The notes beneath the pieces were generated by a model, which saw only the letters and a list, made by a program, of their open reading frames with translations, was not told the origin of the DNA and did no database searches. Source: an uncultured bacterium (GTDB taxonomy: Bacteria > Eisenbacteria > RBG-16-71-46 > CAZHEV01). Taken from it: a stretch of 64,000 nt of DNA. Each line of letters opens with the position of its first letter. Within the stretch, counting starts at the first letter, position 1. The DNA is taken from positions 22,732 through 86,731 of the forward strand of contig CAZHEV010000013.1 in the NCBI GenBank assembly GCA_964531335.1, written 5' to 3'. The position numbers were made by a program, and so were the translations under genes. Below are positions 24,402-53,988 of the stretch, in pieces.

Positions 24402-24419
24402 GACGGAGTGGAATTACCG

Positions 24420-26945: not shown

Positions 26946-26951
26946 AGACGA

Positions 26952-28262: not shown

Positions 28263-28446
28263 AGTTCCATGACGGCATCATCACGATCCGCGTCCTCTGC
28301 CACAACGGCCCGCTCTTGCTCGAAGACAAGTGTATCCGCTGCGGACTGTGCGCGTCGGCGCAGGCGCTACGACTTCAACCACGGAACCGGGTCCTTGCGC
28401 AGCGGGCACCATCCATAACCGGGATTGTCGACAAATCACGGGCCCC

Positions 28447-29124: not shown

Positions 29125-29151
29125 AGGGACTTACAATCCGGTTCACCACGA

Positions 29152-29916: not shown

Positions 29917-29944
29917 GGCGTCCATCCTCCAATTGAAGCGCGTG

Positions 29945-32470: not shown

Positions 32471-32513
32471 AGCAACCTCCAAGGGGGCATGTCATTGTGC
32501 TTGGCATCGAAGC

Positions 32514-33023
32514 TCAACGCTCATCGCCGACCTGGCTGTCTCGATGCTCCGACCATCCGCAACATTCCCCGTCTGTCTCACGGCAGTCCGGGCTCCCTGG
32601 TTCAAGCGCCGGGGGCAACGATTCCGGATCTCCCAGGTCGGCAATGGTGATCTCGCGCGCGGCCGAATAGAAAGCGTCTCTGGCTCGGCCCCAGGCGCGA
32701 TCAAACTTGCACGGATTCTGCTCCGTACAGTCACCCAATCCGAGTCGGCATCCAGTCTCTCCATGCAAATGCTCAATGCCTTCTATCACTTCCAGTAGAG
32801 AGATCTTGTGCGGAGGCCGGGCCAGCCCGTAGCCTCCGGTGAAGCCCCGCTTTGAAGTGACAAATCCCAGGTCTCTGAGGGAATGAAGGATCTTGGCCAA
32901 ATACGGGCGTGGCACGTTAGCGCAAGCCGCGAGTTCCTCCCGTTTCCGCAAAGGCCCTATACAGAACGCCAGGCAACGTAGAGCCCTGATGGCATAGACC
33001 GAGGAGTTCGATAGTCCGAACAT
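32514..33023 (-). CDS. Rrf2-family (IscR/NsrR-like) Fe-S transcriptional regulator
   Basis: ATG 33023 with RBS AAAGGAG; MFGLSNSSVYAIRALRCLA N-terminus; three-Cys cluster CRLGLGDCTEQNPC. Confidence 0.8.
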   Translation of the reverse strand: MFGLSNSSVYAIRALRCLAFCIGPLRKREELAACANVPRPYLAKILHSLRDLGFVTSKRGFTGGYGLARPPHKISLLEVIEGIEHLHGETGCRLGLGDCTEQNPCKFDRAWGRARDAFYSAAREITIADLGDPESLPPALEPGSPDCRETDGECCGWSEHRDSQVGDER

Positions 33024-33061
33024 TTTTGACTCCTTTCCGTGTGAACCTAGCATTTATGACC

Positions 33062-33071
33062 TTGATATCAA
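33062..33071. promoter_or_regulatory. Perfect 10-bp palindrome TTGATATCAA in the Rrf2 upstream region
   Basis: Direct reading; AT-rich divergent promoter region. Confidence 0.3.
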
Positions 33072-33401
33072 CTATTTTCTTGATTTACATATCTAAAAAG
33101 CGATGAAAGGCGGCGCCGCCGGTTGCCTGACGAACCGGCCGGCACTTTCTTCCCGGCCTTCCGGCCCGACCGGGGCCGACCCGGCACCCCACTCGCATCG
33201 ACGGGATGCCCCCACCGTCCACCCTGGAACTCTGTGCGAGAAGACCGACGGGCGGGGAACCAGGAGCGCCTGATCTGAGTGCAGGGGGTGGTCCGCTGGG
33301 CCAAACCCAAAGGGCCATCAGTCTGAATCCCACAGTGCTGGTCACACTTCTGGGGTCATTCCGCGCGGGGCGCGGTGCCTCTGCGCGGTGCCTTTTTTCT
33401 C

Positions 33402-33450
33402 TTGACCGGGATGCAGGGCCTCTGCTATAATTCGATATGTGTGCACATAT
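33402..33450 (+). promoter_or_regulatory. Promoter TTGACC-18-TATAAT followed by a perfect inverted repeat ATATGTG-TG-CACATAT (candidate ArsR operator)
   Basis: Direct reading: TTGACC 33402-33407, TATAAT 33426-33431, palindrome 33435-33450, RBS GGAG 33451-33454, ATG 33463. Confidence 0.45.
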
Positions 33451-33462
33451 GGAGACTGACTT

Positions 33463-33909
33463 ATGCGCGATTTCATGACCATAGCGAAGGCACTCTCGGA
33501 TCAGAACCGGATCAGGATGCTCATGGCGCTCTCCGGGGGTGAGCTCTGCGTGTGCCAGATCACGGAGCTCGTGGGCCGGTCTCCTTCTACCGTATCCAAG
33601 CATATGTCCATTCTGAGGCAGGCGGGTCTTGTTGAAGGAAGAAAGGTCGGCCGTTGGGTCTATTACAAACACCCGGATCGCGACGTTCCCGACCTTGTGC
33701 GCGGCACTCTGAAGTGGGTGCGCAGCTCCCTGGCGGAAGATCCGCATATACTCGCGGATGTGAAACGCCTTGAGGAGGTCTTGAAGCTCGATCCCGAGGT
33801 TTTGTGCCGAGGGCAGAGCATGACGTGTCAATCCTCTCCCGGACGATCATCGGCGAAGGCCGGGACCCGAAAGCGCGGGGTAGATCGCGCGCTCAAGCGC
33901 GCGGGATGA
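33463..33909 (+). CDS. arsR: ArsR/SmtB-family metalloregulator with CVC motif
   Basis: LMALSGGELCVCQITELVGRSPSTVSKHMSILRQAGLV; Cys-Val-Cys as in As(III)-responsive ArsR. Confidence 0.8.
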   Translation: MRDFMTIAKALSDQNRIRMLMALSGGELCVCQITELVGRSPSTVSKHMSILRQAGLVEGRKVGRWVYYKHPDRDVPDLVRGTLKWVRSSLAEDPHILADVKRLEEVLKLDPEVLCRGQSMTCQSSPGRSSAKAGTRKRGVDRALKRAG

Positions 33910-34131
33910 TCTGGGCCACCGTGGTATCGGATCGGCCCGGCCACCCGCGGCGGCGGCCCAGCGATGCACACACTGAGCAACGCCACGCAATTGCCGGCAC
34001 CGCGCTGGTGGCCGCGGTTCAGCGGCGGATACCGAACGAAGTTGTGCGGTTGCCGGCGCCGGCATCATCAAGGAGGCATTGCAGGAAACGGCGGCCGACC
34101 TAAACGAACGGGAGCTTGGAGGAGAGGAGCC

Positions 34132-34995
34132 ATGGGAAAGAAACTGTTGTTGGCAGTATCGATTTGCGCTGTAGCCGCGTTCGTCGTGTACGCGGCGGTG
34201 AACATCCGGGGGATGGAACCGGGATCGGCCGGCGCAGCGGCTGATTTGCCACAATCTGCGGGCGTTTCCCGTGAAGGGCCCGCCGCCGCTGCCGGCGAGC
34301 GGCTGGAAGGATCCGGCGACGGCATGGCCGCGCTGAGAGACGCCGCCGAGGAGGATAAGTATGCTTTCGCCTTCTTCTATAAGGACGAGGATGAAGGCAC
34401 GCAGGAGATGAGGGAGTTGTTCGAGACGGCGATGGAGAAGGTCACAGATCGTGCCGAGCACGTGATCCTCAACGCCGCCGACCCTTCGGAGAAGGACATG
34501 ATCGAGAAGTACGGAATTGACCGATCACCCATGCCGTTGGTACTGGCGTTCGCTCCCAACGGTGCACTGACCCGGGGGCTTCCCAGATCCTTCACCGAGG
34601 AGCAGATAATGAGCTGCTTCGTGAGCCCGTGCATGGAAATGTGCCTCAAGGGCGTGCAGGACAGCAGGCTTGTCGCGGTGTGCGTGCAAAACGGCTCAAC
34701 GCGGTTCAACGAGGAGGCGATGGCTGGAGTGCGGGCATTCATGACGGATCCGCGGTTTGCCCGGATGACCGATCTTGTCATGTTGGACCCCAGCGATCCG
34801 GATGAAGCCACGACCTGTAAGAGGTTCAGCGTCGATCCCGACACCGACCAGGCGATAACCCTTCTGCTCGCGCCTCCGGGCAACATCATCGGAAGATTCA
34901 AGGGGGCGACCGACAAGGACGACATGGTCTCCATTCTGACGAGAGCCACGTCCGGCGGATGCGGTCCGGGCAGCGGCTCTGGATGTTGCCCCTAG
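34132..34995 (+). CDS. Hypothetical exported protein with Cys-rich C-terminal tail
   Basis: ATG 34132 with RBS GGAGGAGAGGAG; N-terminal signal/anchor MGKKLLLAVSICAVAAFVVYAAV; C-terminus GGCGPGSGSGCCP; internal CMEMC. Confidence 0.5.
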   Translation: MGKKLLLAVSICAVAAFVVYAAVNIRGMEPGSAGAAADLPQSAGVSREGPAAAAGERLEGSGDGMAALRDAAEEDKYAFAFFYKDEDEGTQEMRELFETAMEKVTDRAEHVILNAADPSEKDMIEKYGIDRSPMPLVLAFAPNGALTRGLPRSFTEEQIMSCFVSPCMEMCLKGVQDSRLVAVCVQNGSTRFNEEAMAGVRAFMTDPRFARMTDLVMLDPSDPDEATTCKRFSVDPDTDQAITLLLAPPGNIIGRFKGATDKDDMVSILTRATSGGCGPGSGSGCCP

Positions 34996-35013
34996 TAGCC
35001 CGGAGGTAACGAA

Positions 35014-36234
35014 GTGAAACTAAGAAAAATCGTCTGGCAGGAGATGTTTCAGCGGAAGTCCCAGCTTGCCACAAGCCTGATCGCCGTGCTTCTCGGCATC
35101 GCCGTGGTCGTCTCCATCAAGAACATCACCTTCTATTCCGAGAAGGCCGTGGCCAGGGAGCTCGACGCCCTGGGCACCAACATTCTCGTCCTGCCCAAGT
35201 CCGCGTCGATACAGGACTACTACAGCGCGGACATGCAGGATGACGAGTTCCCCGAGGAGTACATAACGCGCCTGGCGACCTCCGACCTCCAGGGACTGGA
35301 CAATCTGTCGCCGAAACTGTCCCTGCCGGTGGAGCTCAACGGCGCCGCTTTCACGCTGACGGGGATACTTCCCAAGAATGAGTTCAGCGCAAAGGCCATG
35401 TGGGCGGGCGCGGGCATCTTCTCGCGGCCGGAGGGCTGCGGTCAGATAGCCGGAATGCCGTCGGCCGCGGACCCGCCGGCCAAGGAGACCTTGGTCCGAA
35501 AGAGGGTCATCGACACCCTCGGTGACAATGAAGCCCTCGTGGGCGCCGACGTGGCGGCCCTGTTGGGGGTCGAGGAAGCCGACGAGCTGGCGATTCTGGG
35601 CAGGACATTCTCGGTAACCGCGGTCCTGCCGCAGACCGGCACCGTGGACGATTCCCGTATCTTCGCCCACCTGCACACTGTCCAGAAGCTATCCGGAAAG
35701 GGCCCCGTGGTCAACGCCATCGAGATCGTGGGCTGCTGCAACGAGATATCCGGGGGGCTGGTGCAGAAGATCAACAGGCTTCTTCCCGAAGCGAGAGTCG
35801 TCACGATCACCCAGGTCGTGGACACGCAGATCAAGACGAATCAGATGATGTCCCGGCTATCGATGGTCTTCCTGGCCATCATTGTTGTCGTCGGGGGAGC
35901 GAGCATAGCCAACTACATGTATGCTAACGTGTATGAAAGGCGCCGTGAGATAGGGACACTCATGGCACTGGGCGCGGGGTCCGGGATGATCTTGAAGCTT
36001 TTCCTTTTGAAGGCCCTGGCGATCGGGCTCGCCGGCGGAATCGGCGGTTATGCGCTGGGCACGCTGCTGGCGGTGACCTTGGGGCCGCAGTTCGCGCGCG
36101 TCCCCGTGCTGCCCATGCCGGTTCTTATCGCCTGGGCGCTCGGCATCTCCCTGATTTTGGCCCTCGCGGCGAGCTATCTCCCGGCCAGGCGCGCCGCGCG
36201 CCTTGACCCGTGCGAGACGCTCCAGGAGATGTGA
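35014..36234 (+). CDS. ABC transporter permease, FtsX/MacB-like
   Basis: 406 aa; N-terminal TM, large periplasmic loop, C-terminal TM bundle. Confidence 0.8.
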   Translation: MKLRKIVWQEMFQRKSQLATSLIAVLLGIAVVVSIKNITFYSEKAVARELDALGTNILVLPKSASIQDYYSADMQDDEFPEEYITRLATSDLQGLDNLSPKLSLPVELNGAAFTLTGILPKNEFSAKAMWAGAGIFSRPEGCGQIAGMPSAADPPAKETLVRKRVIDTLGDNEALVGADVAALLGVEEADELAILGRTFSVTAVLPQTGTVDDSRIFAHLHTVQKLSGKGPVVNAIEIVGCCNEISGGLVQKINRLLPEARVVTITQVVDTQIKTNQMMSRLSMVFLAIIVVVGGASIANYMYANVYERRREIGTLMALGAGSGMILKLFLLKALAIGLAGGIGGYALGTLLAVTLGPQFARVPVLPMPVLIAWALGISLILALAASYLPARRAARLDPCETLQEM

Positions 36235-36905
36235 TCTTGATAAAGTTGGAAGGCGTAAGCAAGAGGTACAACCACCGCGGAAGAGCCGTCACGGCGCTTG
36301 ACGAGGCGACTTTCGAGATCTCCAGAGGGGACTTCGTTTCGGTCGTCGGACCCAGCGGAAGCGGCAAGAGCACGTTTCTTCTGATACTGGGCGGCATGCT
36401 TTCCCCGTCGAAAGGGCGGGTTCTATTGGATGGGAGCTCGATTTATGACCTCGCCCAGGACGCACGCGCCAAGCTAAGGAAGACGAGAATCGGCTTCGTG
36501 TTTCAGACCTTCAATCTAGTGCCGTACCTGTCGGCGATGGAAAACGTCCAGATTCCCCTGTTCCTCGCGGGAATGGACGAGCCCGGCCAGAAGGACAGGG
36601 CCGCGGCATTGTTGGGACGAGTGGGCCTCTCGGAGAGGCTTGACCACAAGCCGTCCGAGATGAGCGTTGGCCAGCAGCAGCGCGTGGCTCTCGCAAGGGT
36701 TCTCGCCAACGACCCCGAGGTTGTGCTCGCGGACGAGCCGACGGGCAACCTCGATCCCGAGACCGGGGAGCACGTCCTCGATTTTCTCTGCGAGATCAAC
36801 GCGGAGGGGAAGACGGTCGTCATGGTGACTCATGACCCGCGCGCCGCCGGGAAAGCGAGAACCGGCCTGAGATTGAGCCAAGGCGCGCTGGTGTCCTTGA
36901 GTTAG
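36231..36905 (+). CDS. ABC transporter ATP-binding protein (MacB/LolD-like)
   Basis: GTG 36231 overlapping the upstream stop (GTGA); Walker A GPSGSGKST, signature-like MSVGQQQRVALAR, Walker B VVLADEPT. Confidence 0.85.
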   Translation: MILIKLEGVSKRYNHRGRAVTALDEATFEISRGDFVSVVGPSGSGKSTFLLILGGMLSPSKGRVLLDGSSIYDLAQDARAKLRKTRIGFVFQTFNLVPYLSAMENVQIPLFLAGMDEPGQKDRAAALLGRVGLSERLDHKPSEMSVGQQQRVALARVLANDPEVVLADEPTGNLDPETGEHVLDFLCEINAEGKTVVMVTHDPRAAGKARTGLRLSQGALVSLS

Positions 36906-36926
36906 CGGGTATGTCGCGGAGCGGAT

Positions 36927-38126
36927 ATGTCAGGGCGCAAGAAGAAGGCCGGGTCACAAGCGGGACGTGAGAGGACGAGCCCTCAGAGGGAGAAGGTGAA
37001 GCGCCGCCGAATGACGAAGTTGGCCTTTACACTCTCGACCGTCATCGTCGTAGCGGCGGCGGCATGGATCGCGTTGGGCTCCCGCGGCGAGAAGTCATGG
37101 AGCCCGTCCTCGGCCTCGGAGCTGTTGCAGTCGGCGGCCACGGCGCCGGATGATGCGGAAACAGGCGCTCGGGCCGGCGGAGCCCCGAAGATTGTCTTCT
37201 CGGAGACATCGTACGATTTCGGCACCTTAACCCAGGGGGCTGACGTATCGCACGCTTTCGTCGTGCGCAACGCCGGAGACGCGCCGTTGAAGCTGCTTGA
37301 CGTGGGGGGATCGTGAGGATGCACGGTTGCCGTCCTCACGGAGACGGACATTCCCCCGGGCGGGGAAGGAGCAATCGAGGTCACGTTCAAAACAGGCAAC
37401 AGGAAGGGAAAGCAGAAAAAGAACATCAAGATAGTGTGCAATGATCCTGCGAGCCCCAAGAACGTGCTGGTTGTCACGGCATTCATCCAGGTTGAGTTCG
37501 ATTTCGCGTCCGGCAGCCTCTATTTCGGCAGCGTGCCGAGAAACGAGACGGTGACCAAGAGCGCTTTCATACAGATCCTGGATCCTGACAGGACGGAAAT
37601 CACGGACATAACCACGTCATCCCCCTACGTTGAAGCGAAACGCCTGAAGGATCCCCCGGCGGGACACGAGGGCGAAGTTGAAATCCGGGTGACCATGTCA
37701 CCGGGACTGCCCCCGGGCAGAGTCAATGAGACGGTCACCGTTCGGTCGAACTTGAGCTCCAAGCCCGAGGCCAGGTTGCGTGTGAGCGGGGTAATACTCG
37801 GAGACGTCGAGGTTGCTCCGGACGCGCTTAGATTCTTTTACAGCGAGTCCGAGGGGGCGGAGAATCAACTACCCCCTCAGAAGCTCGAGGTTGTCAATAG
37901 GTCAACCGAGGCGCCACTGAGAATCTTGGAAGTCAAAGATCCTCAAGACAGGCTGGAACTGGAGCTTGAGGCGATCGAAGACGGTCGGAGATACGAGGTA
38001 ACGGCGACATTGAAGAAAGAGGCCCTCGGCGCTCAGGGTGTCGCTACGGGCTTTATTCTCATTACTACCGATAATCCCGAACAGCGGGAAATCACCGTTC
38101 GATATAGTATCATTAGACGGAAATAG
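36927..38126 (+). CDS. DUF1573-repeat protein interrupted by one in-frame TGA (37314-37316) at a conserved Cys position
   Basis: The 36927-37316 and 37434-38126 track ORFs are in the same frame; read-through gives ...KLLDVGGS*GCTVAVLTETDIPPGGEGAIEVTF..., matching the family SCGCT core as I recall it, with TGA where TGC/TGT (Cys) is expected. Confidence 0.6.
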
Positions 38127-38495
38127 TGGGCGCGTGTCGTCATGACTTGGCTTGGAAACTCGAGCACGGCATGGCGATGTCGCAACTTCGCGGCCTCCGG
38201 GGCGGAGGTTGCAACACATAGAGGGTAGTGTTCTGAGTTGGGAGTTTCTGCAATGTCCTTGTGCTGGTTGCCGCGCGGGTCCTGTCGCCGATTATCCCCC
38301 ACCGTCCTCGCGAAGCCTGCGGGCGGTGGGGGGCCCCCTATCGGCGCCACCCGCGCGAAAAATGTACAAGAACTTCCAACTCAGCATACTGGAAGCGACA
38401 AACACCCACAACTCGGCGGCTCCGGGTCGAAGGTTGTAGGGGGAGTACCGTTGGACGCCGAGTGAGCAATCAAGAGACGGAAGGATGTCACAAGG

Positions 38496-38936
38496 ATGCC
38501 ACTGAGAATACTGTTTCTGTGCACCGGGAATTCGTGCCGCAGCCAGATGGCCGAAGGTTGGACGCGACATCTCAAAGGCGACGTGGTGGAGCCGTACTCG
38601 GCCGGGATAGAACCTCGCGGAATCGATCCCCGCGCCGTGACGGTAATGGCGGAGGTCGGCGTGGATATTTCGAGGCAGAGCTCCAAGCACGTTGACGAAT
38701 TCAAAGGCACAGCCTTCGATTTCGTCGTGACCGTCTGCGACCATGCGAGCGAACACTGCCCGATCTTTCCTGGCGATACCCAAGTGGTGCACGTGGGTTT
38801 CGAGGATCCTCCCAAGCTGGCGGAAAACGCCGAGACCGAAGAGGAGGCGCTCGGCCACTACAGGCGCGTCAGAGACGAGATACGGGCATTTGTGCAGACG
38901 CTGCCGGCTGCCTTGGAAGGAGACGGGAGACAATGA
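38496..38936 (+). CDS. arsC: Arsenate reductase, thioredoxin-coupled LMW-PTPase type
   Basis: CX5R motif LFLCTGNSCRSQMAEG and downstream Cys pair VCDHASEHCP. Confidence 0.85.
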   Translation: MPLRILFLCTGNSCRSQMAEGWTRHLKGDVVEPYSAGIEPRGIDPRAVTVMAEVGVDISRQSSKHVDEFKGTAFDFVVTVCDHASEHCPIFPGDTQVVHVGFEDPPKLAENAETEEEALGHYRRVRDEIRAFVQTLPAALEGDGRQ

Positions 38937-39838
38937 AAGACACCGATATAGACCGCGGGAGTGACGGGAGCAGGGACGCCGATATAGACCGCGGGAGTGA
39001 CGGGAGTGAGCGGAAGGACGCGCGCGGCATCGTGCGCGAAGAATACGGCAAGATCGCCCGGCAGGGCGGCTCCTGCTGCGGGCCGTCACCTTGCTGTGGA
39101 GGCGCTTCCGCTGATTCGGTCGCCGCGAAAGTGGGCTACAGCCAAGAAGAGCTCGCCGGGCTGCCGCATGGAGCTAACATGGGGCTCTCCTGCGGGAACC
39201 CGGTCGCGATCGCGTCGCTGCGGCCGGGGGAAGTCGTGCTCGACCTGGGCGCGGGGGGCGGCTTCGACGTGTTCCTTGCAGCCCGCAAGGTGGGCCCTTC
39301 GGGACGCGCCATCGGCGTGGACATGACGCCGGACATGGTGGACAAGGCCCGCCGCAACGCGGAGTCCTTCAGAAGTGCGACGGGGCTCGACAACGTCGAG
39401 TTCCGTCTGGGCGAAATAGAGCACCTGCCCGTGGCGGACGCGTGCATAGACGTGGTAATCTCCAACTGCGTCATCAACCTCTCGCCGGACAAGCCTCAGG
39501 TGTGGGCGGAGATCGCGCGCGTCCTCAAGCCCGGTGGACGGGTATCCGTCTCCGACCTGGCGCTCCTGCGGCCGCTGCCGGACGCGGTGCGTGAGTCGGC
39601 GCAGGCCTTGGTCGGCTGCATGGCGGGGGCCGTGCCGGTGGATGAGACGCGCGAGATGACGCGGGAGGCCGGACTTACAGAGGCCGTCTTTGAAACCAAT
39701 TCCGACTACGTGGATCAGATGGCCGAGTGGTCCGACGCAACCTACCGCGAGATCGCCGCGGGGCTGCCGCCGGGGGCCCGGCCGAGCGACTTCGTGACCA
39801 GCATGAACGTCACGGCGTCCAAGCCCGTTACGGAATAG
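38933..39838 (+). CDS. arsM: Arsenite S-adenosylmethionine methyltransferase
   Basis: ATG overlaps arsC stop (ATGA); SAM-MTase motif [16 protein letters not shown], conserved Cys ([19 protein letters not shown]). Confidence 0.85.
38943..39006. repeat. 36-bp tandem direct repeat x2 at the 5-prime end of arsM (28/28 identical core ccgatatagaccgcgggagtgacgggag)
   Basis: Direct reading; encodes [11 protein letters not shown] twice. Confidence 0.9.
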
Positions 39839-39848
39839 GAGTGCGACG

Positions 39849-41039
39849 ATGGCGACTGAAGCGTGCATCAAGAAGGAGGCCAAGGGCCTCAGCGCGTTTG
39901 AGAGATACCTGACGGCCTGGGTGGCGCTCTGCATCGTGGCGGGGATCGCGCTCGGCAAGGTAGCGCCGGGCGTGGCTACTTTTCTGGACGGGTTGGCGAT
40001 CTACGTCGACGAGGCCCCGGTCGTCTCCATTCCCATCGCCGTCTGCCTGTTCTTCATGATGTACCCCATCATGGTGAAGATCGACTTCGCGGAGGTCCTA
40101 AAGGCCGGCAAGAACGCGAAGCCCGTGGGCCTTACGCTCTTCGTAAACTGGGCGATCAAGCCCTTCACCATGTACGCCATCTCGGTCTTGTTCCTCGGCG
40201 TGCTGTTCCGGGGGCTGATAGGTGCGGACGCCGTGGATCTGGTAAAAATGCCGCTCGGCCTCGACCTGCCCGTGGGGGCGGAGCACGGGGTGGGCAAGGT
40301 CGTGATCGCAGACGGGGTCAGGATGCTCGAGGTGCCGCTGTGGCGCAGCTACCTCGCCGGCTGCATCCTGCTCGGCATCGCGCCCTGCACGGCGATGGTG
40401 CTCGTCTGGGGGTTCCTGGCCAAGGGGAACGACGGCCATACCCTCGTCATGGTGGCGATCAACTCGCTGACAATGCTGTTTCTCTACGGCCCGCTTGGAG
40501 GTTTTCTGCTCGGCGTCGGAAGGCTGCCCGTGCCGTGGCAGGCGCTCCTTCTTTCCATCGGCGTCTATGTCGCGCTGCCGCTCGTGGCCGGATATGCGTC
40601 CAGGAGACTCATCGTTCGCGCCAGGGGAGAGGAGTGGTTCAAGGAGAGATTCCTGCACGTGATGACGCCGGTCACCATCACGGCGCTCCTTGTGACCCTG
40701 GTCTTGCTCTTCTCCTTCAAGGGCGAGACGATCATGTCCAACCCTTTGACGATCCTGTGGATCGCCATCCCGCTTTTCATCCAGACCAACCTGATATTCT
40801 GGATCACCTACGGACTGGCCAGGGGGCTGCGTCTTGAGTACCGTGACGCCGCGCCTTCGGCGATGATCGGAGCCTCGAATCACTTCGAGGTCGCCATCGC
40901 GACGGCGACCATGCTCTTCGGGCTTTCCTCGGGGGCGGCGCTTGCAACCGTGGTCGGGGTGCTCATCGAGGTGCCCGTGATGCTGATGCTGGTCCGGATC
41001 TGCCTTCGCACCAGCGGATGGTTCCGTGCGCCCTCGTGA
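39849..41039 (+). CDS. acr3: Arsenite efflux permease, ACR3 family
   Basis: RBS TAGGAG; polytopic membrane protein; N-terminal [23 protein letters not shown] typical of Acr3. Confidence 0.85.
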
Positions 41040-41555
41040 CCCGTACCCGGGCTAATCGCGGCAGCGCGCCCTGGTGGCCGGAAAGACCGCCGAAGAAGCC
41101 CGAGAGTGATCCGCCGAGAAAGAGATATCTGCGGTCGAATTTGAGATCCCGCACTCGGGGCAGCAGCTCGAACAGTGAGAACGCAAGCATGAGTGCTCCC
41201 ATGACCAGCTTGATAGGGGTGATGACGGCCGTTCGATCCCCCAGCTCATACCTTGCGATTTCTCCGCGATTTCTCCGAAATGGGCCACCCATCCCAGTGC
41301 GGCGGCGCCGGCGAAGGCCGCCGCGACGGCGGGGATGCCGAACCTGGTGACCAGGGACAGGTTCGCGTGCTTTCCCACCACGGCGACTTTGAAGGCGTTG
41401 TTCGCTCCGTGAACCACCGCCGTGGCCCCAACGGCGACTTCGACCGGGAAGAACAGAGCGAATACCGGCAGGAGAAGTGTCCCCAGACCGAACCCGGAGT
41501 ACAGAGTCAGTGCCGAGGCGAAAAACGCGACGGATGCGACCAGTGCCGGCTCCAT
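40963..41555 (-). pseudogene. TauE/SafE (TSUP) family sulfite-exporter-like permease, frameshifted and apparently 3-prime truncated
   Basis: N-terminal half lies in the frame of track ORF 41052-41732 (MEPALVASVAFFASALTLYSGFGLGTLLLP...), C-terminal continuation in the frame of ORF 40963-41292 (RYELGDRTAVITPIKLVMGALMLAF...). The frames are separated by an 11-bp tandem duplication; the 3-prime end overlaps acr3 convergently. Confidence 0.6.
41255..41276. repeat. Exact 11-bp tandem duplication (gcgatttctcc x2) causing the TauE frameshift
   Basis: Direct reading of 41255-41265 and 41266-41276; removing one copy restores ...WVAHFGEIARYELGDRTAVITP... in a single frame. Confidence 0.9.
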
Positions 41556-41572
41556 CTCATCCTCCCAACCGG

Positions 41573-42988
41573 TCAAGCTGCGGGCCAAATCCAGACTACG
41601 AGTACTGAAACGAACAAGATGGAGGAAACCAGGAGCCCGGAACGCGCCGCTGCGAGCGAGTCTGCGGGGATGTCGCGCATCCATCGCGATGCCCGCCACG
41701 CGAGCAGGATCGCCACTGCGAGCATCGCCCATCCGACGGTCGAGAGGCCGAGCAGTCCCGCAGGCATGGCGATTCCGTGGTCTCCGATTTGTCGGAAGGT
41801 TTCCATCCCATTCGGATCGCTAACCGCCAGAGGCAGGTAGCCGCCCCATGAAGCGACTTTGGCTGCGGCCTTTGAGACGTGCGCCGCGGCTACGACCGGA
41901 GCCGCTCCCGTCGCGGCGGCGAGCAGAAGCGTCCGAAGACCGCCGCGGTGGCCCATGAGGTAGCCCAGCAGGGAGACGGCGGCCCACACCAGAATGGGGA
42001 AAATGACAAGGAACCACAAAGCCTCGAACCATCCGAATTCAACCATCGGCAGGAGGGAGTTCAGCCGCTTCGGCACGGCGTGAAATCCGGCGTCGAGCCA
42101 CTTTACTTCTCCTATGACTTCATGCGCCACGAAGCCGAGAGCGACCAGCACGAAAGCGGCCTCGAACGGCAGGAGCAAAGACCTGCGCCGGATCGGCGAG
42201 TCGGATCGCGCAAGACCGAACCCCATGTTGTCGTAGGGACAGACCTTGGCGCATTGGAGGCAGAGCACGCAGCCGTCGGACGGTTTGCGCCGAAAGGGTG
42301 CCAATAGCGACGGGCAGCTTCGCTTGTCAAAGCGGTCGCGGTTCGCGGGACGAATACAATCCTTGGTGCCGCAGGAGTCGCAGAGGGATGGATCGCGGGC
42401 CTCAAGCTGGATCGGGGTGTAGCGGCCGTACACGGAGAGCAGCGCTCCGGCAGGGCAGAAAGCGCGGCAGAATGAGCGGTGATCGCTGAAGACCAGCCCC
42501 GCGACAAACGCCGTAGCTGCCAACAGGAGAAGAAAGATCGACGTGTAGTGCGGCATTCTATGGATGGAGAATCCCGCGACCAGAAGTTGGAGCAGGAGGT
42601 AGATGGTTACGATAATCCAGCCGGCCCGCAGGAACCTCCCCAGCCGTGGGCGCGGCCGTCCGGCTCTGCCGGCGATGGCGTTGCCGATCCGGTTGACCAT
42701 CTCCAATGGACAGACCGTGCACCAAGCCCGTCCAAAACCCAACGCAATCGCGATCATCAGCGGCCACCAAAGCCCCCAGACGACCAGAGTGGTGAGGTTC
42801 GTCTTTCGCAGGGTCAGCAGCTCATCGTCCTTCATGCCGGTACCGATGCCCAGTCCGTTTATTGCCAACAAGGCGACCGCGACCAGGGCAAGCGCTTGCA
42901 TCGTCACCGGAAACGCAGCGGACATGAGAAAGCGGCGCACAGGCTTCCATCTTAAGACGTCGAATCTCACTTGGGATTTTTCGGTCAT
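41573..42988 (-). CDS. Polytopic membrane 4Fe-4S binding protein (NapH/MauN-like polyferredoxin)
   Basis: ATG 42988; multiple TM segments plus Cys clusters (CTVCP, CRAFCPAG, CDSCGTKDC, CVLCLQCAKVCP). Confidence 0.65.
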   Translation of the reverse strand: MTEKSQVRFDVLRWKPVRRFLMSAAFPVTMQALALVAVALLAINGLGIGTGMKDDELLTLRKTNLTTLVVWGLWWPLMIAIALGFGRAWCTVCPLEMVNRIGNAIAGRAGRPRPRLGRFLRAGWIIVTIYLLLQLLVAGFSIHRMPHYTSIFLLLLAATAFVAGLVFSDHRSFCRAFCPAGALLSVYGRYTPIQLEARDPSLCDSCGTKDCIRPANRDRFDKRSCPSLLAPFRRKPSDGCVLCLQCAKVCPYDNMGFGLARSDSPIRRRSLLLPFEAAFVLVALGFVAHEVIGEVKWLDAGFHAVPKRLNSLLPMVEFGWFEALWFLVIFPILVWAAVSLLGYLMGHRGGLRTLLLAAATGAAPVVAAAHVSKAAAKVASWGGYLPLAVSDPNGMETFRQIGDHGIAMPAGLLGLSTVGWAMLAVAILLAWRASRWMRDIPADSLAAARSGLLVSSILFVSVLVVWIWPAA

Positions 42989-43241
42989 TGTCCGTACCGT
43001 CCGCCGTCTTCTCCGAGCACTATCTCGCGGTGGAGCTCCTCGATCTGTGCGCGCAGGTGGGCGAGCACTTTCCGGCCGTTCTCGGTCGGCGAATATTTCC
43101 TCCTGGCTCGCAGGCCGCTTCCGGGGTCGGTCTTGCACTTGATCCAGCCGCGATCTTCCTGACCACCAAGCTCGTCGAATCGTTCCCCGGCCTGGACTTC
43201 TCCCTTGCCGGGCCGGGCATGTCCCAGGGCTGCCGGCTTTC

Positions 43242-44387
43242 TCATGGGCGCCCTGGGCCGGCGAGGCTCTTCCACGCCTTGCTCAACAGTACCACCGCTT
43301 GGCGGACATCGTCGCTCGTCGTCGCCCGACCGAGTGAGAGGCGAACGGAGCCGAGCGCGTCCTCGGCGGTGAGGCCCATGGCAAGTAGCACCGCCGAGGG
43401 AGCCTCCCCGCCCTCGTGGCACGCCGAGCCCGTCGACGCGGCGAGCCCCGGGGCGCCGCCGAGCACGGCGCTGCCGCGCACGCCGGGAAACGTCACGTTC
43501 AGAGTGTTGGGCAGCCCCAGCGCCTCGTGGCCGTTGAGCGCGATACCCGGGATTTTTGCCCGCAATAGCAACAATAGCTCGTCCCGCAGAGCCCGGGCCC
43601 GCGCCGATTCCTTCGCCAGAGACCTGATCGCAATCTCGCATGCCGCGCCGAGCCCGACTATCGATGCCACGTTCTCGGTGCCCGGCCGCAGGCCTCGCTC
43701 GTGACCGGCGCCGCGCAGCACCGGCTCCACGGTCACCCCATCGCGGACGTACAGCGCCCCGACGCCCTTCGGGGCGTAGAGCTTGTGTCCTGCGATGGAC
43801 AGGAGGTCCACGCCGAGTTCATCCACTTGTACGTCGATCTTGCCCACTGACTGGGCCGCGTCGGTGTGCAGCAGGGATCCGGCGTCGTGAACCGCTCGCC
43901 TCACCTCGGCGATCGGCTGGAGCGTGCCGGTCTCGTTGTTGGCGTGCATCAGCGTAACGAGAACGGTCTCCTCGGTCAGTGCCCGGCGCACATCCTCCTC
44001 TCGGACACGTCCGGTCTCGTCGACCCCCAGCCAGGTGACTGCCAAGCCGCTTCGTTCGAGCAGCCTGCAGGGGTTAGCAGTCGCCGGATGCTCGACGACC
44101 GAAGTGACGATGTGCTTCCTGTCCGGGCGGGAGGCCGCCGCACCCCGGATCGCGAGGTTGTTCGCCTCGGTGCCGCCCGACGTGAACACGATCTCGGCGG
44201 GCGCGGCGCCGATGAGCGAGGCGACGCGCGCCCGCGCGGCCTCGACCGCTTCGTGCGCCCGTCGTCCGTACGCGTGACCGCTCGACGGGTTGCCGAAGTG
44301 CTCCCGCAGGTACGGCAGCATCTCGTCCACGACCTCGGGCAGGAGCGGAGTGGACGCGTTGTGATCGAGGTAGATGGGATCGCTCAT
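43242..44387 (-). CDS. Cysteine desulfurase (NifS/IscS family, PLP-dependent)
   Basis: ATG 44387 with RBS AGAGGGGGA; MSDPIYLDHNASTPLLPEVV...TSGGTEANN..., PLP-Lys context SIAGHKLYAPKG, active-site Cys region STGSACH. Confidence 0.85.
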   Translation of the reverse strand: MSDPIYLDHNASTPLLPEVVDEMLPYLREHFGNPSSGHAYGRRAHEAVEAARARVASLIGAAPAEIVFTSGGTEANNLAIRGAAASRPDRKHIVTSVVEHPATANPCRLLERSGLAVTWLGVDETGRVREEDVRRALTEETVLVTLMHANNETGTLQPIAEVRRAVHDAGSLLHTDAAQSVGKIDVQVDELGVDLLSIAGHKLYAPKGVGALYVRDGVTVEPVLRGAGHERGLRPGTENVASIVGLGAACEIAIRSLAKESARARALRDELLLLLRAKIPGIALNGHEALGLPNTLNVTFPGVRGSAVLGGAPGLAASTGSACHEGGEAPSAVLLAMGLTAEDALGSVRLSLGRATTSDDVRQAVVLLSKAWKSLAGPGRP

Positions 44388-44553
44388 GACTCCCCCTCTT
44401 GCGATGTTCTCTTGTATGCAGCGGCCGCGACGAACGCGGCGCCGGGCGTGATGGTGGCAGCCGGCATGTGATCGAGCGGCGCGGAACGGCGCCGCCCGTC
44501 GCGAGCCCGCGTGTCGCGCCGGCACGCGTACGTCCTCGGGAGCATCGCCTGCA

Positions 44554-45765
44554 TCACAGCCCGGTCGCGAGCTGCACGGTCACCACGAGGTGATCCTGCA
44601 GCGCCGCCGCGCTAGGGTCTCCTTCCCGCTGCCCTACGTAGGTGCCTTCCACACTGAGCTTGTTGGCGTGGCCCGAGAAGAAGTAGTTCAAGCCGAGGCC
44701 GCCGACATGAGTGTTGTGGTCGCTGTCATCGACGTGAATCAACTCGTAACGCGCGAAGGGCTGAAGCCGACCGGGTCCGACTTCGCCCGATATAAGGTAG
44801 CCGCCCCTGAAAGACACGACGTCGGCCTCGGTCCCGGGGGAGAGGGCCGTGAAGTTGACGGTGCCGGGAGCGCCGCGGATGTTAATGTAGGACCCAACCA
44901 GCGTCAATCCTCCTCCGCCGCCGATGGGCCGGTCGTAGTGGACGTCGGCGGTCCATGAGAAATAGTCGTCTTCGCCTGTATCGAAGGTGAGCTGCTGGGA
45001 GTCAAAGCCGCCGCCGATTGATAGGACCTGCCGTTTGCCGAGGTAGGTGCCCTGGTTGAACCAGCCGGTCTCGGGCTCCAAAAGAGACAGGCTCAAGCGC
45101 CCCGCGATGCGAGGGGCGCCGCCGGGATTGCGGGTCTCGTCGTCCACGCCGTCGGCGACCATGAGGCGATACTGCGCGAGCCCGCCCTCGATGTTTCCCC
45201 ACAGTGTGGCGCCGTCATCGCGGCCGACCGTGCTCGGGTAGAAGATCCCCCCGCGATATCCGCCCTGAATCCAGTCCAGATCGGTGGTGAGGAGCGCCTT
45301 GGTCGAGGTCGTTCCGTAGTTTCGAGTGAAGGGGATGTACATCCGCCCGACCTGGAGCTGCATCGCGCCCTCAAGGAGTTTGACGTAGACCCATCCGTCT
45401 CGAAGTGCGAGCCCGGTGCCAAGGCCCACGCCGGGTTTGTCCAGGCCCCTCTGTCCGAAACGGTCCCCGGCGATGTGGACGAAGAAACCGTACCAGGGGG
45501 TCGCCGTGCCGTTCACGGACAGGTACACTCGCCGCAGCAAGAAGTCGTGGAGATCCTGATCCGCGTCGCCGTCCGATGCGTCCTGTACGTACTGGTACCA
45601 TCCCTGCGCCCACAGACCGATGCTCAATGAGCGGTCTCCGTCGCGATATATCTCCTCTGCAAAAGCGGCGCCGGAGGCACCGAGCGCCAGTAGAACGGCC
45701 AGACCTGCCGCGACGGGCACGGTCCTCGACTTGCGGCTGCGAAATGTTTGTCTTGGTCTGCCCAT
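44554..45765 (-). CDS. Putative outer-membrane beta-barrel / porin-like protein
   Basis: ATG 45765 with RBS GGAGGA; signal peptide ...AAGLAVLLALGASGAAFA; Gly/Tyr/Thr-rich beta-like composition. Family not resolved. Confidence 0.45.
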   Translation of the reverse strand: MGRPRQTFRSRKSRTVPVAAGLAVLLALGASGAAFAEEIYRDGDRSLSIGLWAQGWYQYVQDASDGDADQDLHDFLLRRVYLSVNGTATPWYGFFVHIAGDRFGQRGLDKPGVGLGTGLALRDGWVYVKLLEGAMQLQVGRMYIPFTRNYGTTSTKALLTTDLDWIQGGYRGGIFYPSTVGRDDGATLWGNIEGGLAQYRLMVADGVDDETRNPGGAPRIAGRLSLSLLEPETGWFNQGTYLGKRQVLSIGGGFDSQQLTFDTGEDDYFSWTADVHYDRPIGGGGGLTLVGSYINIRGAPGTVNFTALSPGTEADVVSFRGGYLISGEVGPGRLQPFARYELIHVDDSDHNTHVGGLGLNYFFSGHANKLSVEGTYVGQREGDPSAAALQDHLVVTVQLATGL

Positions 45766-45778
45766 GCTCGATCCTCCG

Positions 45779-46132
45779 TCAAAACACCAGGATTCGGTCG
45801 GCCCACAGGGTCCACTCGGTAAGCTGGTCGAGGGATCCGCGTTTCGTTCCCTCGGCGAGATCGTCGAGCGCGAGGCCGCGGGCGTCCATACAATTGGCGC
45901 AGACACCGATCTCGCCCTTCTTGTTGCTGACCGCGCGCAGCATGCGCTCGAGGTTGTAATACCCGTTGGGGGTCTGCTGCCCGGCCCTGGCGCAACTTGC
46001 CGCGTCGCCCATGAGGAAGACGCGGACCTCTTCTCCCTCGCGCTTGACGAGGGAGCCCGCCAGGCGCAGGCCGTTGTAGCTCCGTTCAGTGCCGTAGGGC
46101 GCGTCGTTCAGAATAAAGAGGGTTTTGCTCAT
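45779..46132 (-). CDS. DsrE/DsrF-like sulfur-relay family protein
   Basis: 117 aa; MSKTLFILNDAPYGTERSYNGLRLAGSL...FLMGDAASCA pattern. Confidence 0.7.
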   Translation of the reverse strand: MSKTLFILNDAPYGTERSYNGLRLAGSLVKREGEEVRVFLMGDAASCARAGQQTPNGYYNLERMLRAVSNKKGEIGVCANCMDARGLALDDLAEGTKRGSLDQLTEWTLWADRILVF

Positions 46133-46812
46133 GATTGGTCCTCGATAGCATTGGTTTCGACGGCCAGACCGCGGGCGCGCCAGTCGGTCACTCCCTCCTC
46201 CATTCGGATGGCGTAAAAGCCTTTTTCGCGAAGCGCCTCGACGGCCTGCACGGATAGCACGCAGTAGGGCCCCCGGCAGTAGGCGACGATGTCTTTATCC
46301 TTGGGAAGCTCGGCCAATCTGGATTCAAGCTCCGTCAGGGGAATCGATATCGCTCCCGGGATGTGGCCTGCGCTGTACTCCTCGACGGGCCGCACGTCGA
46401 TTACCGTGACGCTCTTGCTTCGAACGCGCTCTATCAGTTGCGCGCGATCGACGGCCTCGAGTCCTTCCCGACCGTCGAGGAAGCGACGAGTGATCTGTTC
46501 GATGTCGGCGAGCCGCTTCTCTGCAAGGAGGCGCATGCTTCGGAAAAAGTCACATACCGCCAAGTCGGCGATCTTATAGGTGACGTAGAGTCCCTCCTTG
46601 CGGCCCTCGATGAGGCTTGCTCCACGCAGGACGTGCAGATGGCGGGAGGCGTTGGCGACCGTCAGGCCGGATTCTTTGGCCAGCGCCTCGACGGTCCTCG
46701 GGCCCTGGCAGATAAGATCCAGCAGCTCCAGCCGTTTGGGGCTGGAGACGGCCCTTCCGATCCGCGAAAACTGCTCGTAGATATCGTCTTTGAAGCGCCT
46801 GTTGGGGTTCAT
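46129..46812 (-). CDS. ArsR-family HTH regulator fused to a rhodanese domain (BigR-like persulfide-sensor candidate)
   Basis: N-terminal wHTH (LELLDLICQGPRTVEALAKESGLTVANASRHLHVL), C-terminal rhodanese with active-site loop AYCRGPYC. Confidence 0.8.
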   Translation of the reverse strand: MNPNRRFKDDIYEQFSRIGRAVSSPKRLELLDLICQGPRTVEALAKESGLTVANASRHLHVLRGASLIEGRKEGLYVTYKIADLAVCDFFRSMRLLAEKRLADIEQITRRFLDGREGLEAVDRAQLIERVRSKSVTVIDVRPVEEYSAGHIPGAISIPLTELESRLAELPKDKDIVAYCRGPYCVLSVQAVEALREKGFYAIRMEEGVTDWRARGLAVETNAIEDQS

Positions 46813-46852
46813 GGTAGCCCTTTCTTCTTGTGCTACTCAAGCGAATAAGCAA

Positions 46853-46881
46853 GTAATAGAATAATCTGGCGTCCGTGTCAA
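46853..46881 (-). promoter_or_regulatory. Minus-strand sigma70-type promoter TTGACA-17-TATTAC upstream of the ArsR-rhodanese operon
   Basis: Direct reading of the reverse complement: TTGACA (46881-46876), 17-nt spacer, TATTAC (46858-46853); about 40 nt upstream of ATG 46812. Confidence 0.35.
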
Positions 46882-46963
46882 GACGAAAGATGGTTGTTGC
46901 TGGGAACGCTTGTTCCTCATCTTTTTTCGCCGCACCCGCGCGAACACCTTCGGTCTCAGGGCG

Positions 46964-49900
46964 TTACCTGATAGCCCGGGAGCCGGCATCCCTTTCCTTA
47001 CCGAACATCCTGTAGATGGCGGGCATTAGAATCAGGGTGAGTGCGTTCGCTGAGAGCACTCCCCCGATCACGACTGTGGCGAGCGGGCGCTGCACCTCAG
47101 CCCCAACGCCGGTGTTCAACGCCATCGGAAGGAACCCCAGGCTGGCGACCAGCGTCGTCATGAGAACCGGTCTCAGGCGCAAAAGGGCGCTTTCCTCGAT
47201 CGCCCGCTCGATGGGAAGACCGTCGGCGATCATTCGCTGCATGGTGGAGACGAGTACCAAGCCGGCGAGCATGGCGACCCCGGAGACCGCGACGAATCCC
47301 ACGCCGGCCGACACTGTAAAGGGCATCCCGCGGATCCACAGCGACAGGAGCCCTCCAAGGGTTGCGAAGGGGGCGCCCGTGAAGATGAGCAGCGCGTCCC
47401 GCAGGGATCCCGTACTCGTGTAGAGGAGGAAGAGGATCAGGAGGAGCGCCAGCGGTACGACGATCATCAGGCGATGGCGCGCCCTCTCCATGTGTTCGAA
47501 CTGTCCGGCGAATGCCATGTAGTATCCCGCGGGGAGTTCGACCTCACGATCGAGCCGCTTCCGCGCCTCACCGACAAAGCCACCCACGTCGCGTCCCCTT
47601 ACGTTGCACTGCACGACGATCCGCCTCCTTTGCCACTCGCGCGTGATTGTCGACGGCCCTTCGACCTGCCGGATGCGCGCGAGCTGTTCGAGGGGAATGC
47701 GCCCGCCGGCCGCCGTTGGGATGAGGATCCGCCGCACCGCGTCAGGATCGCTTCGGTATCGCTCCGGCAGTCGCACCGCGAGATCGAAGCGTCGCTGACC
47801 TTCGCGTATCTCCCCGACGGTCACGCCGCCTATAGCCTCCACGACTTCGAGAACATGCTGTGCCGCGACGCCGTGGCGCCCTACGGCATCTTGATCGACT
47901 TGGATTTCGATTACGGGCTGGCCCGTGATCTGTTCCACGTACACGTCGGCCGCCCCGCGAATGCCGCCGATGACGGCGCCCACCTCCGCGGCTTTTTCTC
48001 GAAGGATGTCGAGATCGTCGCCGAAGATCTTTATCCCCACGTCCGTGCGAATCCCGGCGATCATTTCATTCACCCGCATCTCGATCGGTTGCGTGAAGAT
48101 GAGGCGCATCCCGGGCAAACCGGAGAGCTCCAGGCTCATGAGCTCGACCAGTGCCTCTTGGCTGCCGGCTCTCGTCCACTCGCCCCTCGGGGCCAGCGTG
48201 ATGAAGACATCGGAGAGCTCTATCCCCATGGGGTCCGTCGCCACCTCCGCCGTGCCCGTGCGGACCCACACGTCGCGAACCTCGTCGGGGTGCTTCTCGA
48301 GGATTATCTTCTCGATCCGGCCGCCGTAGCGAACGGACTCCTCCAGGGAGATCCCGGACAGCCGGACCGTGTTTATCACAATCCCACCCTCGGAGAGGCG
48401 CGGAAGGAATTCCGAGCCTATTCGCGTGGCGAGGACCGCCCCACAAGCGAGCAGCAGAAGCGCTCCGGCCAGGACGCGCCGACGGCGCCTGATCGCATAG
48501 CGAACCACCGGGCCATAGATGCTTTTTGTGGCGCGAGCGATTCTGTTCTCCTTGGCCTCCGTACGATTCCGCAGTACGAGGCTCGCCAAAACAGGCATGA
48601 GGGTGAGCGAGAGAACCAGCGAGCCGGCGAGCGCGAAAAGCAGAGTGAGGGCCATAGGTCTGAAGAGCCTTCCCTCCACGCCTTCGAGTGTCAGGACCGG
48701 CAGGAAGACGATGGCAATGATCAGCTCTCCGTACATCGTGGGTTTGCGGACTTCAGTGGCGGCCTCGCGGACGGTGTCGATCACCGAACGGCGGCCTTCA
48801 TGATGAGCCAGGCGCCGGACGCAGTTCTCGACCGAGATTACCGAGCTGTCCACGATGAGGCCGAAGTCTATGGCACCGAGACTCATAAGGCTCCCCGCGA
48901 TGCCGAACTTGACCATGCCGTTAACCGCAAAAAGCATGGACAGTGGAATCGCCGCCGCGACGATGAGCCCGGCGCGTAGGTTGCCCAGGAGAACAAAGAG
49001 CACGGCGATGACCAGGAGCGCTCCCACTAGCAAGTTCTCCTCTACGGTATGGAGGACTTTGTCGACGAGGTCCGTTCGCTCGTACAGGGGTTTCACCTCG
49101 ACTCCCTCCGGGAGCGTCTCCCGGATCTCCGCCATTCGCTCGCGGAGGCGTGAAGTCACCTCGTGACTGTTCTCCCCCATCAGCATGAAGGCGAGCCCCA
49201 GCACCACCTCCCCACGCCCGTTGGCTGTGACCGCGCCTCGGCGAATCTCATGCCCCTCGCGCACCTCGGCAACGTCTCGGACGCGGATCGGCACTCCGTC
49301 CTCGGCCGTGATGAAGATGTTCCCGATCTCCCGGAGATCCGTCGTCAGACCGATGCCCTGGACCAGGTTCATCTCGCCCGCCTGCGCGATGTATCCGCCT
49401 CCGACAACCAGGTTGTTCTTCTCAAGCGCTCGAAGCACGTCGTCCAGCGTCATGTCGTATTTCACGAGGCGCACGGGATCGGCAAGTACGTGGAACTGTT
49501 TTCGCTTTCCTCCCCACGTATTGACCTCGGCCACCCCCGGAACCGATTGCAGCCGCGGCTTGATGACCCACTCGTGCAGCGTCGTGAGCTCCATGAGGGT
49601 GTGGCTCTCGCTTGTTACCACGTAGTGATAGATCTCCCCAAGCCCCGTGGCTACGGGGCCCATCTCCGGGTTAGGGGTCCCGTCGGGAATCTCCACCGTC
49701 TGCAGGCGCTCCATGATGAGCTGCCGCGCGAAGTAGATGTCGACGTCCTCTTCAAAGGTGACCGTCACCTGGGACAGACCGAATTTCGAGATCGACCGCA
49801 CTCCCTCCAGTCCCGGTAGGCCGGCGATCGCCCGCTCGACGGGGAAGGTGATCTGTTGCTCGATTTCCATGGGCGATAGTGCCGGCGCCGTAGTGTTGAT

Positions 49901-50044: not shown

Positions 50045-50056
50045 GGGATCTCCTCT

Positions 50057-52944: not shown

Positions 52945-53031
52945 GCGGAATCCCTCCATAGCAAGACCCACGCGCCGGACGTCTATCCGGTCGCTTCAGG
53001 GCTCAACGCTGTCATAACGAGAAGGAGAGAT

Positions 53032-53956: not shown

Positions 53957-53988
53957 ATCCGCGTGGATGCTTAACTTAAGGAGCCTAC

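Follow-up and report, generated by a model that had tools for sequence, protein, structure and literature searches.

Three arsenic resistance genes, arsC, arsM, and acr3, stand head on against a broken TauE gene, and the question raised by this locus is which of the two neighbors moved. The stretch of DNA that we analyzed (the window) comprises 64,000 nt from an uncultured bacterium of the Eisenbacteria (assembly GCA_964531335.1, contig CAZHEV010000013.1). A preliminary description of the sequence held that arsC-arsM-acr3 was a cassette inserted into a preexisting sulfur operon, cutting TauE. We favor a different reading, to which we assign a probability of roughly 0.7: the ars trio is resident, a 12.9-kb block is the variable piece at the boundary between acr3 and the arsR gene beyond it (arsR2), and TauE was cut at the edge of that block and later suffered an 11-bp duplication.

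The evidence for this reading comes first from synteny. A search with Acr3 retrieved four long contigs (four assemblies) from ENA and JGI metagenomes (L048 to L051) that are nearly identical to one another and whose Acr3 is 94% identical to that of the window. Their gene order is thioredoxin, DsbD, DGC, sulfur transporter, ArsR, a protein of 288 amino acids (aa), FtsX, ABC, DUF1573, arsC, arsM, acr3, ArsR, ABC, ABC-2 permease, and ECF sigma factor. At the nucleotide level (79 to 90% identity in all segments), L048 positions 1 to 3576 match window positions 23544 to 27099, 3793 to 8576 match 33394 to 38224, 8577 to 11185 match 38389 to 41033, 11214 to 11522 match 53951 to 54259, and 11609 to 13909 match 54514 to 56812, with collinearity extending on to about 58595 in the window. 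In L048 to L051, the left flank of arsC runs without interruption through the ars trio and into the sequence found 12.9 kb farther right in the window (84 to 90% nucleotide identity), and the earlier proposal that the ars module was acquired by insertion into a sulfur operon does not survive this observation. Compared with L048, the window has three extra pieces, at 27100 to 33393, 38225 to 38388, and 41034 to 53950; no counterpart of the last was found in the L048 to L051 loci. Because the ars genes and both wider flanks are contiguous in these relatives, we treat them as one conserved backbone, and for the same reason we identify the variable piece as the TauE-bearing 12.9-kb block (41040 to about 53925, minus strand) rather than the ars trio.

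A third lineage (L052/L060), with Acr3 91% identical to that of the window, retains DUF1573, arsC, a remnant of arsM, and acr3. Since DUF1573-arsC-acr3 and a 90-nt remnant of arsM are kept there, the ars genes appear to be ancestral at the site, and all three related lineages carry them with the same left flank. Synteny is not identical among relatives to the right of acr3, where L048 to L051 and L052/L060 differ: in L052/L060, homology to the window ends at 41037 and is followed by an unrelated DUF3034 gene and a peptidase gene. In that lineage arsM was lost by an 834-bp deletion (L052/L060 9501 to 11189 compared with window 38915 to 39748) that left its last 90 nt, the endpoints of the deletion have a short GGCTGCC-type microhomology in common, and the upstream FtsX and ABC genes are also eroded. 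The L048 and L060 lineages, with their different right flanks of acr3, co-occur in one metagenome sample (ERZ27256796); the differing content at this site thus represents population-level variation within a single habitat.

The other side of the junction is a pseudogene. TauE/TSUP starts at 41555 on the minus strand, convergent with acr3, and retains codons 1 to 161 of about 262 (41062 to 41555, by tblastn and alignment). The truncation reported in the preliminary description was confirmed, and a second lesion had gone unnoticed: a perfect 11-bp tandem duplication (GGAGAAATCGC twice, 41255 to 41276) shifts the frame after codon 96. Searches by tblastn with five full-length homologs recovered residues 1 to 102 and 89 to 161 in two frames. 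When one 11-bp copy was removed, the 161 codons aligned end to end with TSUP/TauE proteins of 262 to 263 aa (75 to 80% identity, E ~1e-70). Similarity ends after GHQGAL at base 41062, where the homologs go on with RSAFL and about 100 further residues; the breakpoint lies after residue 161, and homologs do not end there. The claimed overlap of TauE with acr3 (40963 to 41039) is not an overlap of genes: 22 bp of unassignable sequence (41040 to 41061, no strand) separate the acr3 stop codon (41037 to 41039) from the last TauE-homologous base, and the apparent overlap is a mechanical effect of calling open reading frames (ORFs), in which a frame outside the homology reads on into acr3 antisense until it meets a stop codon. 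Residues 162 to 262 (101 C-terminal codons) were not found anywhere in the window by tblastn with the five homologs or by three-frame translation, and the missing 3′ half is not encoded upstream of arsC. The uninterrupted frame scores 31.4 bits against PF01925, under the cut-off of 32.6, and falls short of the full length of the family (~240 to 265 aa, two halves of four transmembrane segments each). Of 82 sites invariant in ten intact homologs, the repaired remnant differs at only 5, and the intact homologs, each left out in turn, differ at 0 to 5. Because the remnant shows no decay at conserved sites, its inactivation was recent, and we conclude that TauE is a recently inactivated pseudogene at the edge of an island.

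Homologous loci show what the gene looks like when whole. Genome and metagenome scans seeded with the 471-aa NapH-like polyferredoxin, the product of the gene upstream of TauE, returned only relatives of at most 66% identity; the best database matches are at most 72% identical for the polyferredoxin and at most 80% for TauE. The polyferredoxin gene is followed by a full-length TauE gene in L002, L018 to L020, L023, and L025 to L027; the contigs of L022 and L024 stop partway through TauE, and the NCBI assembly L059 carries PadR-polyferredoxin-TauE (234 aa). Altogether the pair was seen in at least 10 other loci and this one NCBI assembly. TauE was always the downstream gene and was full length (234 to 265 aa) wherever the contig reached far enough, and ars genes never adjoined it. 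Because these loci carry full-length TauE, the gene does not naturally end at codon 161. As a guide to synteny, the distant polyferredoxin relatives showed that TauE is normally full length and could not define the empty site. The window gene resembles members of the TSUP/TauE-SafE family over its N-terminal 161 residues and, as in many phyla, comes after the polyferredoxin gene. It differs from these anion exporters, which have 4+4 transmembrane segments, in that its second half is gone and its frame is shifted, and it could not function. The polyferredoxin-TSUP/TauE module (polyferredoxin end at 41573 to 43245 in the window, minus strand) recurs in contigs labeled Planctomycetes, Myxococcota, Scalindua, and others (L059, L001, L002, and L018 to L027). 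In L059 it is preceded by a PadR-type regulator, as it is in L001 when judged by eye. The function of this module appears to be uncharacterized.

Given these observations, it is very improbable that an arsC-arsM-acr3 cassette entered a preexisting sulfur operon and thereby cut TauE. Truncation of TauE 22 bp from the acr3 stop codon is what such an event might leave, and at larger evolutionary distances modules with 85 to 89% identical Acr3 do occur in other contexts, as arsR-arsC-arsM-acr3-EamA (L057) and arsR-arsC-acr3-arsR-arsP (L054). However, the ars genes and their flanks form an unbroken stretch in L048 to L051, and the 3′ half of TauE lies neither on the other side of the supposed cassette nor elsewhere in the window. 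A recombination breakpoint directly 3′ of acr3 did cut TauE, as had been supposed, but the ars trio was not the inserted piece. The ars genes also have the composition of the backbone. G+C content is 0.639 in the ars region, 0.629 in the block, and 0.61 to 0.63 in the backbone; G+C content at third codon positions overlaps gene by gene among the ars genes, the block, the Arr-like block described below, and the backbone; and tetranucleotide correlations are 0.88 to 0.95 between all segments. A comparison of G+C content and codon usage between the ars region and its flanks therefore found no distinction. No transposase or integrase, and no target duplication or terminal repeats, were found bounding 38127 to 41060, and a search for repeats bounding the ars genes or the block gave only short, chance-level pairs, none of which links the cassette ends. 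Among PLSDB plasmids there were only 65 to 73% matches to single ars genes, with no near-identical cassette and no match to the block.

An inverted repeat upstream of arsC had been taken as a further sign of a cassette end, and it too counts against the insertion of the ars genes, because it belongs to an unrelated element. The noncoding stretch between DUF1573 and arsC (38127 to 38495), estimated earlier at about 370 bp, is indeed 369 bp long and consists of 98 nt of backbone (38127 to 38224, plus strand), which align to L048 as far as ...CATAGAGG, a 164-nt palindromic element (38225 to 38388, no strand), and a conserved 107-nt region directly 5′ of arsC (38389 to 38495, plus strand). The repeat is a real pair (CTGAGTTGGGAGTT, 38233 to 38246, and AACTTCCAACTCAG, 38371 to 38384; 13 of 14 positions complementary), and its arms are the sole two matches across the window. 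It is not a free-standing pair, however, but the outer stem of the 164-nt element, which is a separate insertion, is not linked to the cassette ends, and does not mark a cassette boundary. The element is missing from the orthologous site in L048, the closest relative, and folds as a single long hairpin (ΔG of −93 kcal/mol; z = −6.7; 0 of 200 shuffles as stable). It looks like a palindromic element of the miniature inverted-repeat transposable element (MITE) or enterobacterial repetitive intergenic consensus (ERIC) type that landed in the ars control region. It resembles MITE-, ERIC-, and repetitive extragenic palindromic (REP)-like elements in being 164 nt long, noncoding, and intergenic, in its imperfect terminal inverted repeats of ~20 nt and its one hairpin, and in having no counterpart at the orthologous site of the relative. 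It differs from them in that only a single copy was seen (one in the window and none in 60 related loci fetched), in that no clear target-site duplication is evident around it between ...CATAGAGG and CTGGAAG, and in that it has no Rfam match; no Rfam family was found in 37800 to 41800 at E values up to 1.

The 107 nt before arsC differ from L048 by 4 mismatches (96% identity), compared with 88% identity for the ars genes and 84 to 90% for neighboring coding DNA. A structured RNA leader was considered for this region and rejected, since its folding stability does not exceed that of shuffled sequences (z = +1.2). Because it shows no unusual RNA structure, we treat it most simply as likely promoter/operator DNA, from which the ars genes would probably be driven. 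When 38000 to 41700 was scanned for promoter and terminator consensus sequences, nothing promoter-like turned up, and the acr3/TauE junction showed no terminator.

The two ends of the 12.9-kb block are sharp. The stop codon of acr3 in L048 shares bases with the TTGACG hexamer of the downstream arsR promoter, and in a three-way alignment the L048 sequence joins cleanly what are, in the window, the left junction (...GGTTCCGTGCGCCCTCGTGA) and the right junction (...TTGACATCAGACACATGGGGTACTAAAGTATCCGCGTGG..., followed by ArsR2 at 53989). In the window the arsR2 promoter (TTGACA...TACTAAAGT) and the ArsR2 gene (53989 to 54327) occupy 53926 to 54327 on the plus strand, a unit that comes directly after acr3 in the relatives. 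It is scarcely credible that the acr3/TauE junction, or a join within the ars genes, is a chimera assembled from two genomes with a common ars sequence. Logan contigs from the same run do break in arsM (at 39339) and in acr3 (at 40562), and the 1.2 kb between these points is bridged by the window's contig alone. However, Logan contig L017 (run SRR7048218) is 100% identical to the window from 54657 to 40562, with both block junctions internal to it; the DUF1573-arsC junction is internal to Logan contig L016, also 100% identical; and the bridged interval is exactly as the collinear arsM-acr3 sequence of L048 predicts. The breaks inside arsM and acr3 hint that the sample contains strain variants or another ars locus of similar sequence.

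It is less settled whether the window's lineage acquired the block or its relatives lost it, and we favor gain by insertion, through an illegitimate rather than a site-specific joining. We do so because a single event accounts for the junction and the truncation alike; because the TauE remnant is undecayed despite 12 to 16% divergence between the window and L048, which would make the truncation much younger than that divergence; and because the block genes have no close orthologs (no polyferredoxin above 72% identity and no TauE above 80%) in a database where the L048 lineage is well sampled. Acr3 has 94% identical relatives on four long contigs and the block genes have none close, which is consistent with absence of the block from the genomes of those relatives. 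Alternatively, the block could be ancestral: a deletion in the L048 lineage would have removed it and joined the acr3 stop to the arsR2 promoter, and in the window an independent, later deletion would have taken away the 3′ half of TauE together with neighboring DNA. This course of events seems unlikely to us. The L048 lineage demonstrably deleted DNA at the other variable site, that of the Arr-like block, where L048 keeps a 48-residue remnant of the 5′ end of a porin gene. The native-like composition of the block would also suit an ancestral origin, and a stretch of ~12 nt just left of TTGACA in the window is similar to the final codons of acr3 in L048 (8 of 12 by count; p ~0.01 by binomial estimate) and could be a short direct repeat capable of mediating a precise deletion. 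Against such a loss, two events are invoked where one suffices, and the window's left and right junctions are no more alike than shuffled sequence (Smith-Waterman score of 7, compared with a shuffle mean of 8.1); we do not claim a target duplication either.

Several observations weigh against gain of the block by a resident ars locus, or at least fail to support it. The direction of the event is unproven, since L048 could have lost the block just as it deleted DNA at the Arr site. The unrelated right flank of L052/L060 cannot polarize the event. No integrase, transposase, or recombinase was found among the block genes scanned against Pfam, no tRNA gene that might serve as an island target was found in the window, and no significant direct repeat flanks the block. 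The composition of the block is indistinguishable from that of the backbone, and all assemblies of the window's own lineage derive from one sequencing run. Outgroups with 85 to 89% identical Acr3 and the long L060 contig were also tried as polarizing evidence and were set aside, their contexts being too different.

Of the features that define integrative islands, the block has presence/absence polymorphism at a fixed site and lacks an integrase, a tRNA target, att repeats, and deviant composition. Like flexible genomic islands more broadly, it is an accessory block (RND metal efflux and sulfur transfer) with sharp boundaries, present in one lineage and missing from close relatives, and at its site, the acr3 stop, each of the three lineages has a right flank of its own. 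It differs from such islands in having no integrase, tRNA, clear att repeat, or compositional bias and in that one of its edges cuts a gene of the block itself. It is conceivable, though in our judgment quite doubtful, that the few bases following the acr3 stop codon, where the arsR2 promoter overlaps, are a recurrent recombination hotspot, given that three lineages have three unrelated right-hand contents there (arsR2-ABC, the 12.9-kb block, and DUF3034-peptidase) with no recognizable recombinase. On that doubtful reading, a weak duplication of ~16 nt from the end of acr3, seen at the far junction, might be a trace left by an unrecognized site-specific or microhomology-driven capture mechanism. 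Taken at its plainest, the locus is a pseudogene at the boundary of a flexible island beside a conventional, intact ars operon, a case of ordinary genome flux.

With the ars trio as the resident, we envisage the following history. The trio would close, at the 3′ end, a conserved gene cluster of the chromosome devoted to arsenic and thiol/selenium handling and comprising ArsR1, the 288-aa thioredoxin-like protein, FtsX, ABC, the probable DUF1573 selenoprotein, arsC, arsM, and acr3. In the ancestral order, acr3 would have been followed directly by arsR2-ABC-ABC2. In the window's lineage, a block for sulfur transfer and metal efflux would have come to lie between the acr3 stop and the arsR2 promoter, with TauE as its last gene, facing acr3. 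The recombination that formed this junction would have cut TauE after codon 161, and the 11-bp tandem duplication would have shifted the frame of the remnant later.

The ars genes themselves are intact. arsC (38496 to 38936), arsM (38933 to 39838), and acr3 (39849 to 41039) all lie on the plus strand and, as previously described, are tightly spaced, with a 4-nt overlap (ATGA) between arsC and arsM and a 10-nt gap between arsM and acr3. Pfam and NCBIfam models identify arsC as an arsenate reductase gene of the low-molecular-weight phosphatase (probably thioredoxin-coupled) type and arsM as an arsenite S-adenosylmethionine methyltransferase gene, and NCBIfam identifies acr3 as an arsenite efflux permease gene that is intact to its natural C terminus. 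On these assignments, ArsC would reduce arsenate, ArsM would methylate arsenite, and Acr3 would export arsenite. Acr3 scores 381.3 bits against TIGR00832 (equivalog cut-off, 282.8), covers positions 1 to 327 of the 327 in the model, and ends in SGWFRAP(S), as do homologs of 396 to 397 aa. ArsM scores 317.4 bits against NF008823 (cut-off, 263) and matches Methyltransf_31 in Pfam at 4e-36; its translation has cysteines in the N-terminal region and at VGCMAG, whose role we take to be that established for CmArsM. ArsC matches LMWPc in Pfam (2e-18; 67 bits, cut-off of 23), scores 142.4 bits against the pI258-type equivalog TIGR02691, under the cut-off of 174.3, and has both the CX5R loop (CTGNSCRS) and a cysteine pair of the Cys82/Cys89 type (CDHASEHC). 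An in-frame 36-bp tandem duplication in arsM (38939 to 38970 and 38975 to 39006) adds 12 residues at the N terminus of ArsM; these are specific to the window and not found in L048 ArsM. Together with the 11-bp duplication in TauE, this suggests that small tandem duplications have accumulated in the window's lineage.

In enzymes, transporter, gene order, and tight spacing, the trio resembles chromosomal arsR-arsC-arsM-acr3 operons, of which L057 and L058 show the classical form (Acr3 87% identical to that of the window); full-length coverage of the family models, the catalytic cysteine motifs of ArsC, and the cysteine-rich N terminus of ArsM are further likenesses. It differs from them in three respects: no arsR lies directly upstream, the trio instead trailing a five-gene cluster headed by ArsR1; the window's relatives have a second arsR with its own promoter after acr3; and ArsC falls below the TIGR02691 cut-off (142 compared with 174 bits).

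The block to the right of acr3 is read on the minus strand, beginning at its far end with ~950 bp that hold small Cys-rich ORFs. In order of transcription it continues with the outer-membrane factor (51610 to 52971), membrane fusion protein (50057 to 51613), RND pump (46964 to 50044), ArsR-rhodanese regulator (46129 to 46812), DsrE (45779 to 46132), a porin (between DsrE and the NifS-like gene), a NifS-like cysteine desulfurase (43242 to 44525), a small ORF, the NapH-like polyferredoxin (41573 to 42988), and the TauE remnant, which is the first gene of the block next to acr3. At the head of the RND efflux genes, an ORF of 142 aa (53032 to 53460, minus strand) has a signal-like N terminus and many cysteines (CC and CxxxC) and no Pfam match; it may encode a metal-binding accessory protein.

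The value of these results lies partly in correction: a truncated gene beside a resistance operon invites the reading of an inserted cassette, and synteny shows the reverse. The locus is also a small, well-resolved example of a conserved arsenic cluster remodeled between close lineages: an Arr-like block was gained or lost, arsM disappeared from one of them, a 164-nt hairpin entered the ars control region, and acr3 was parted from the downstream arsR. It should be of use to those who infer arsenic metabolism from metagenome-assembled genomes of this group and will not surprise a specialist. Annotators should mark TauE at 41062 to 41555 as a pseudogene and leave the mechanical ORF at 40963 to 41292 uncalled.

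Two other parts of the cluster deserve mention. ArsR1, an ArsR-family regulator (33463 to 33909, plus strand; Pfam HTH_5, 1e-16; collinear with L048 3862 to 4308), is the first gene of the conserved plus-strand cluster that ends with acr3. The DUF1573/OS_HP2-family gene (36927 to 38126, plus strand) belongs to the backbone, immediately precedes arsC in each of the three lineages, and contains an in-frame TGA (37314 to 37316). This codon and its flanks, LLDVGG[S/P]-U-GCTVAVLTE, are kept in the window, L048, and L052; the product matches the NCBIfam OS_HP2 (seleno)protein model; and a hairpin (GAGGATGCACGGTTGCCGTCCTC) begins at the last two bases of the TGA. The two DUF1573 ORFs are probably one gene for a selenocysteine protein that gene callers have split.

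Upstream of ArsR1 lies the Arr-like block, a 6.3-kb piece (27100 to 33393) that is missing from L048 and L052 and encodes a porin, a TorD-like chaperone (28447 to 29124), an ArrB-like subunit (29152 to 29925), an ArrA-like molybdoenzyme (29945 to 32482), and Rrf2. The porin remnant kept by L048 indicates that its lineage lost this block by deletion. The ArrB-like subunit scores 236 bits against an equivalog cut-off of 450, and the ArrA-like protein, for which ArrA is the best hit over the full length, scores 1121 bits against a cut-off of 1600. Judged by these scores, the enzyme (29152 to 32482), which resembles the respiratory arsenate reductase ArrAB, could be a divergent Arr or an Arx-type enzyme.

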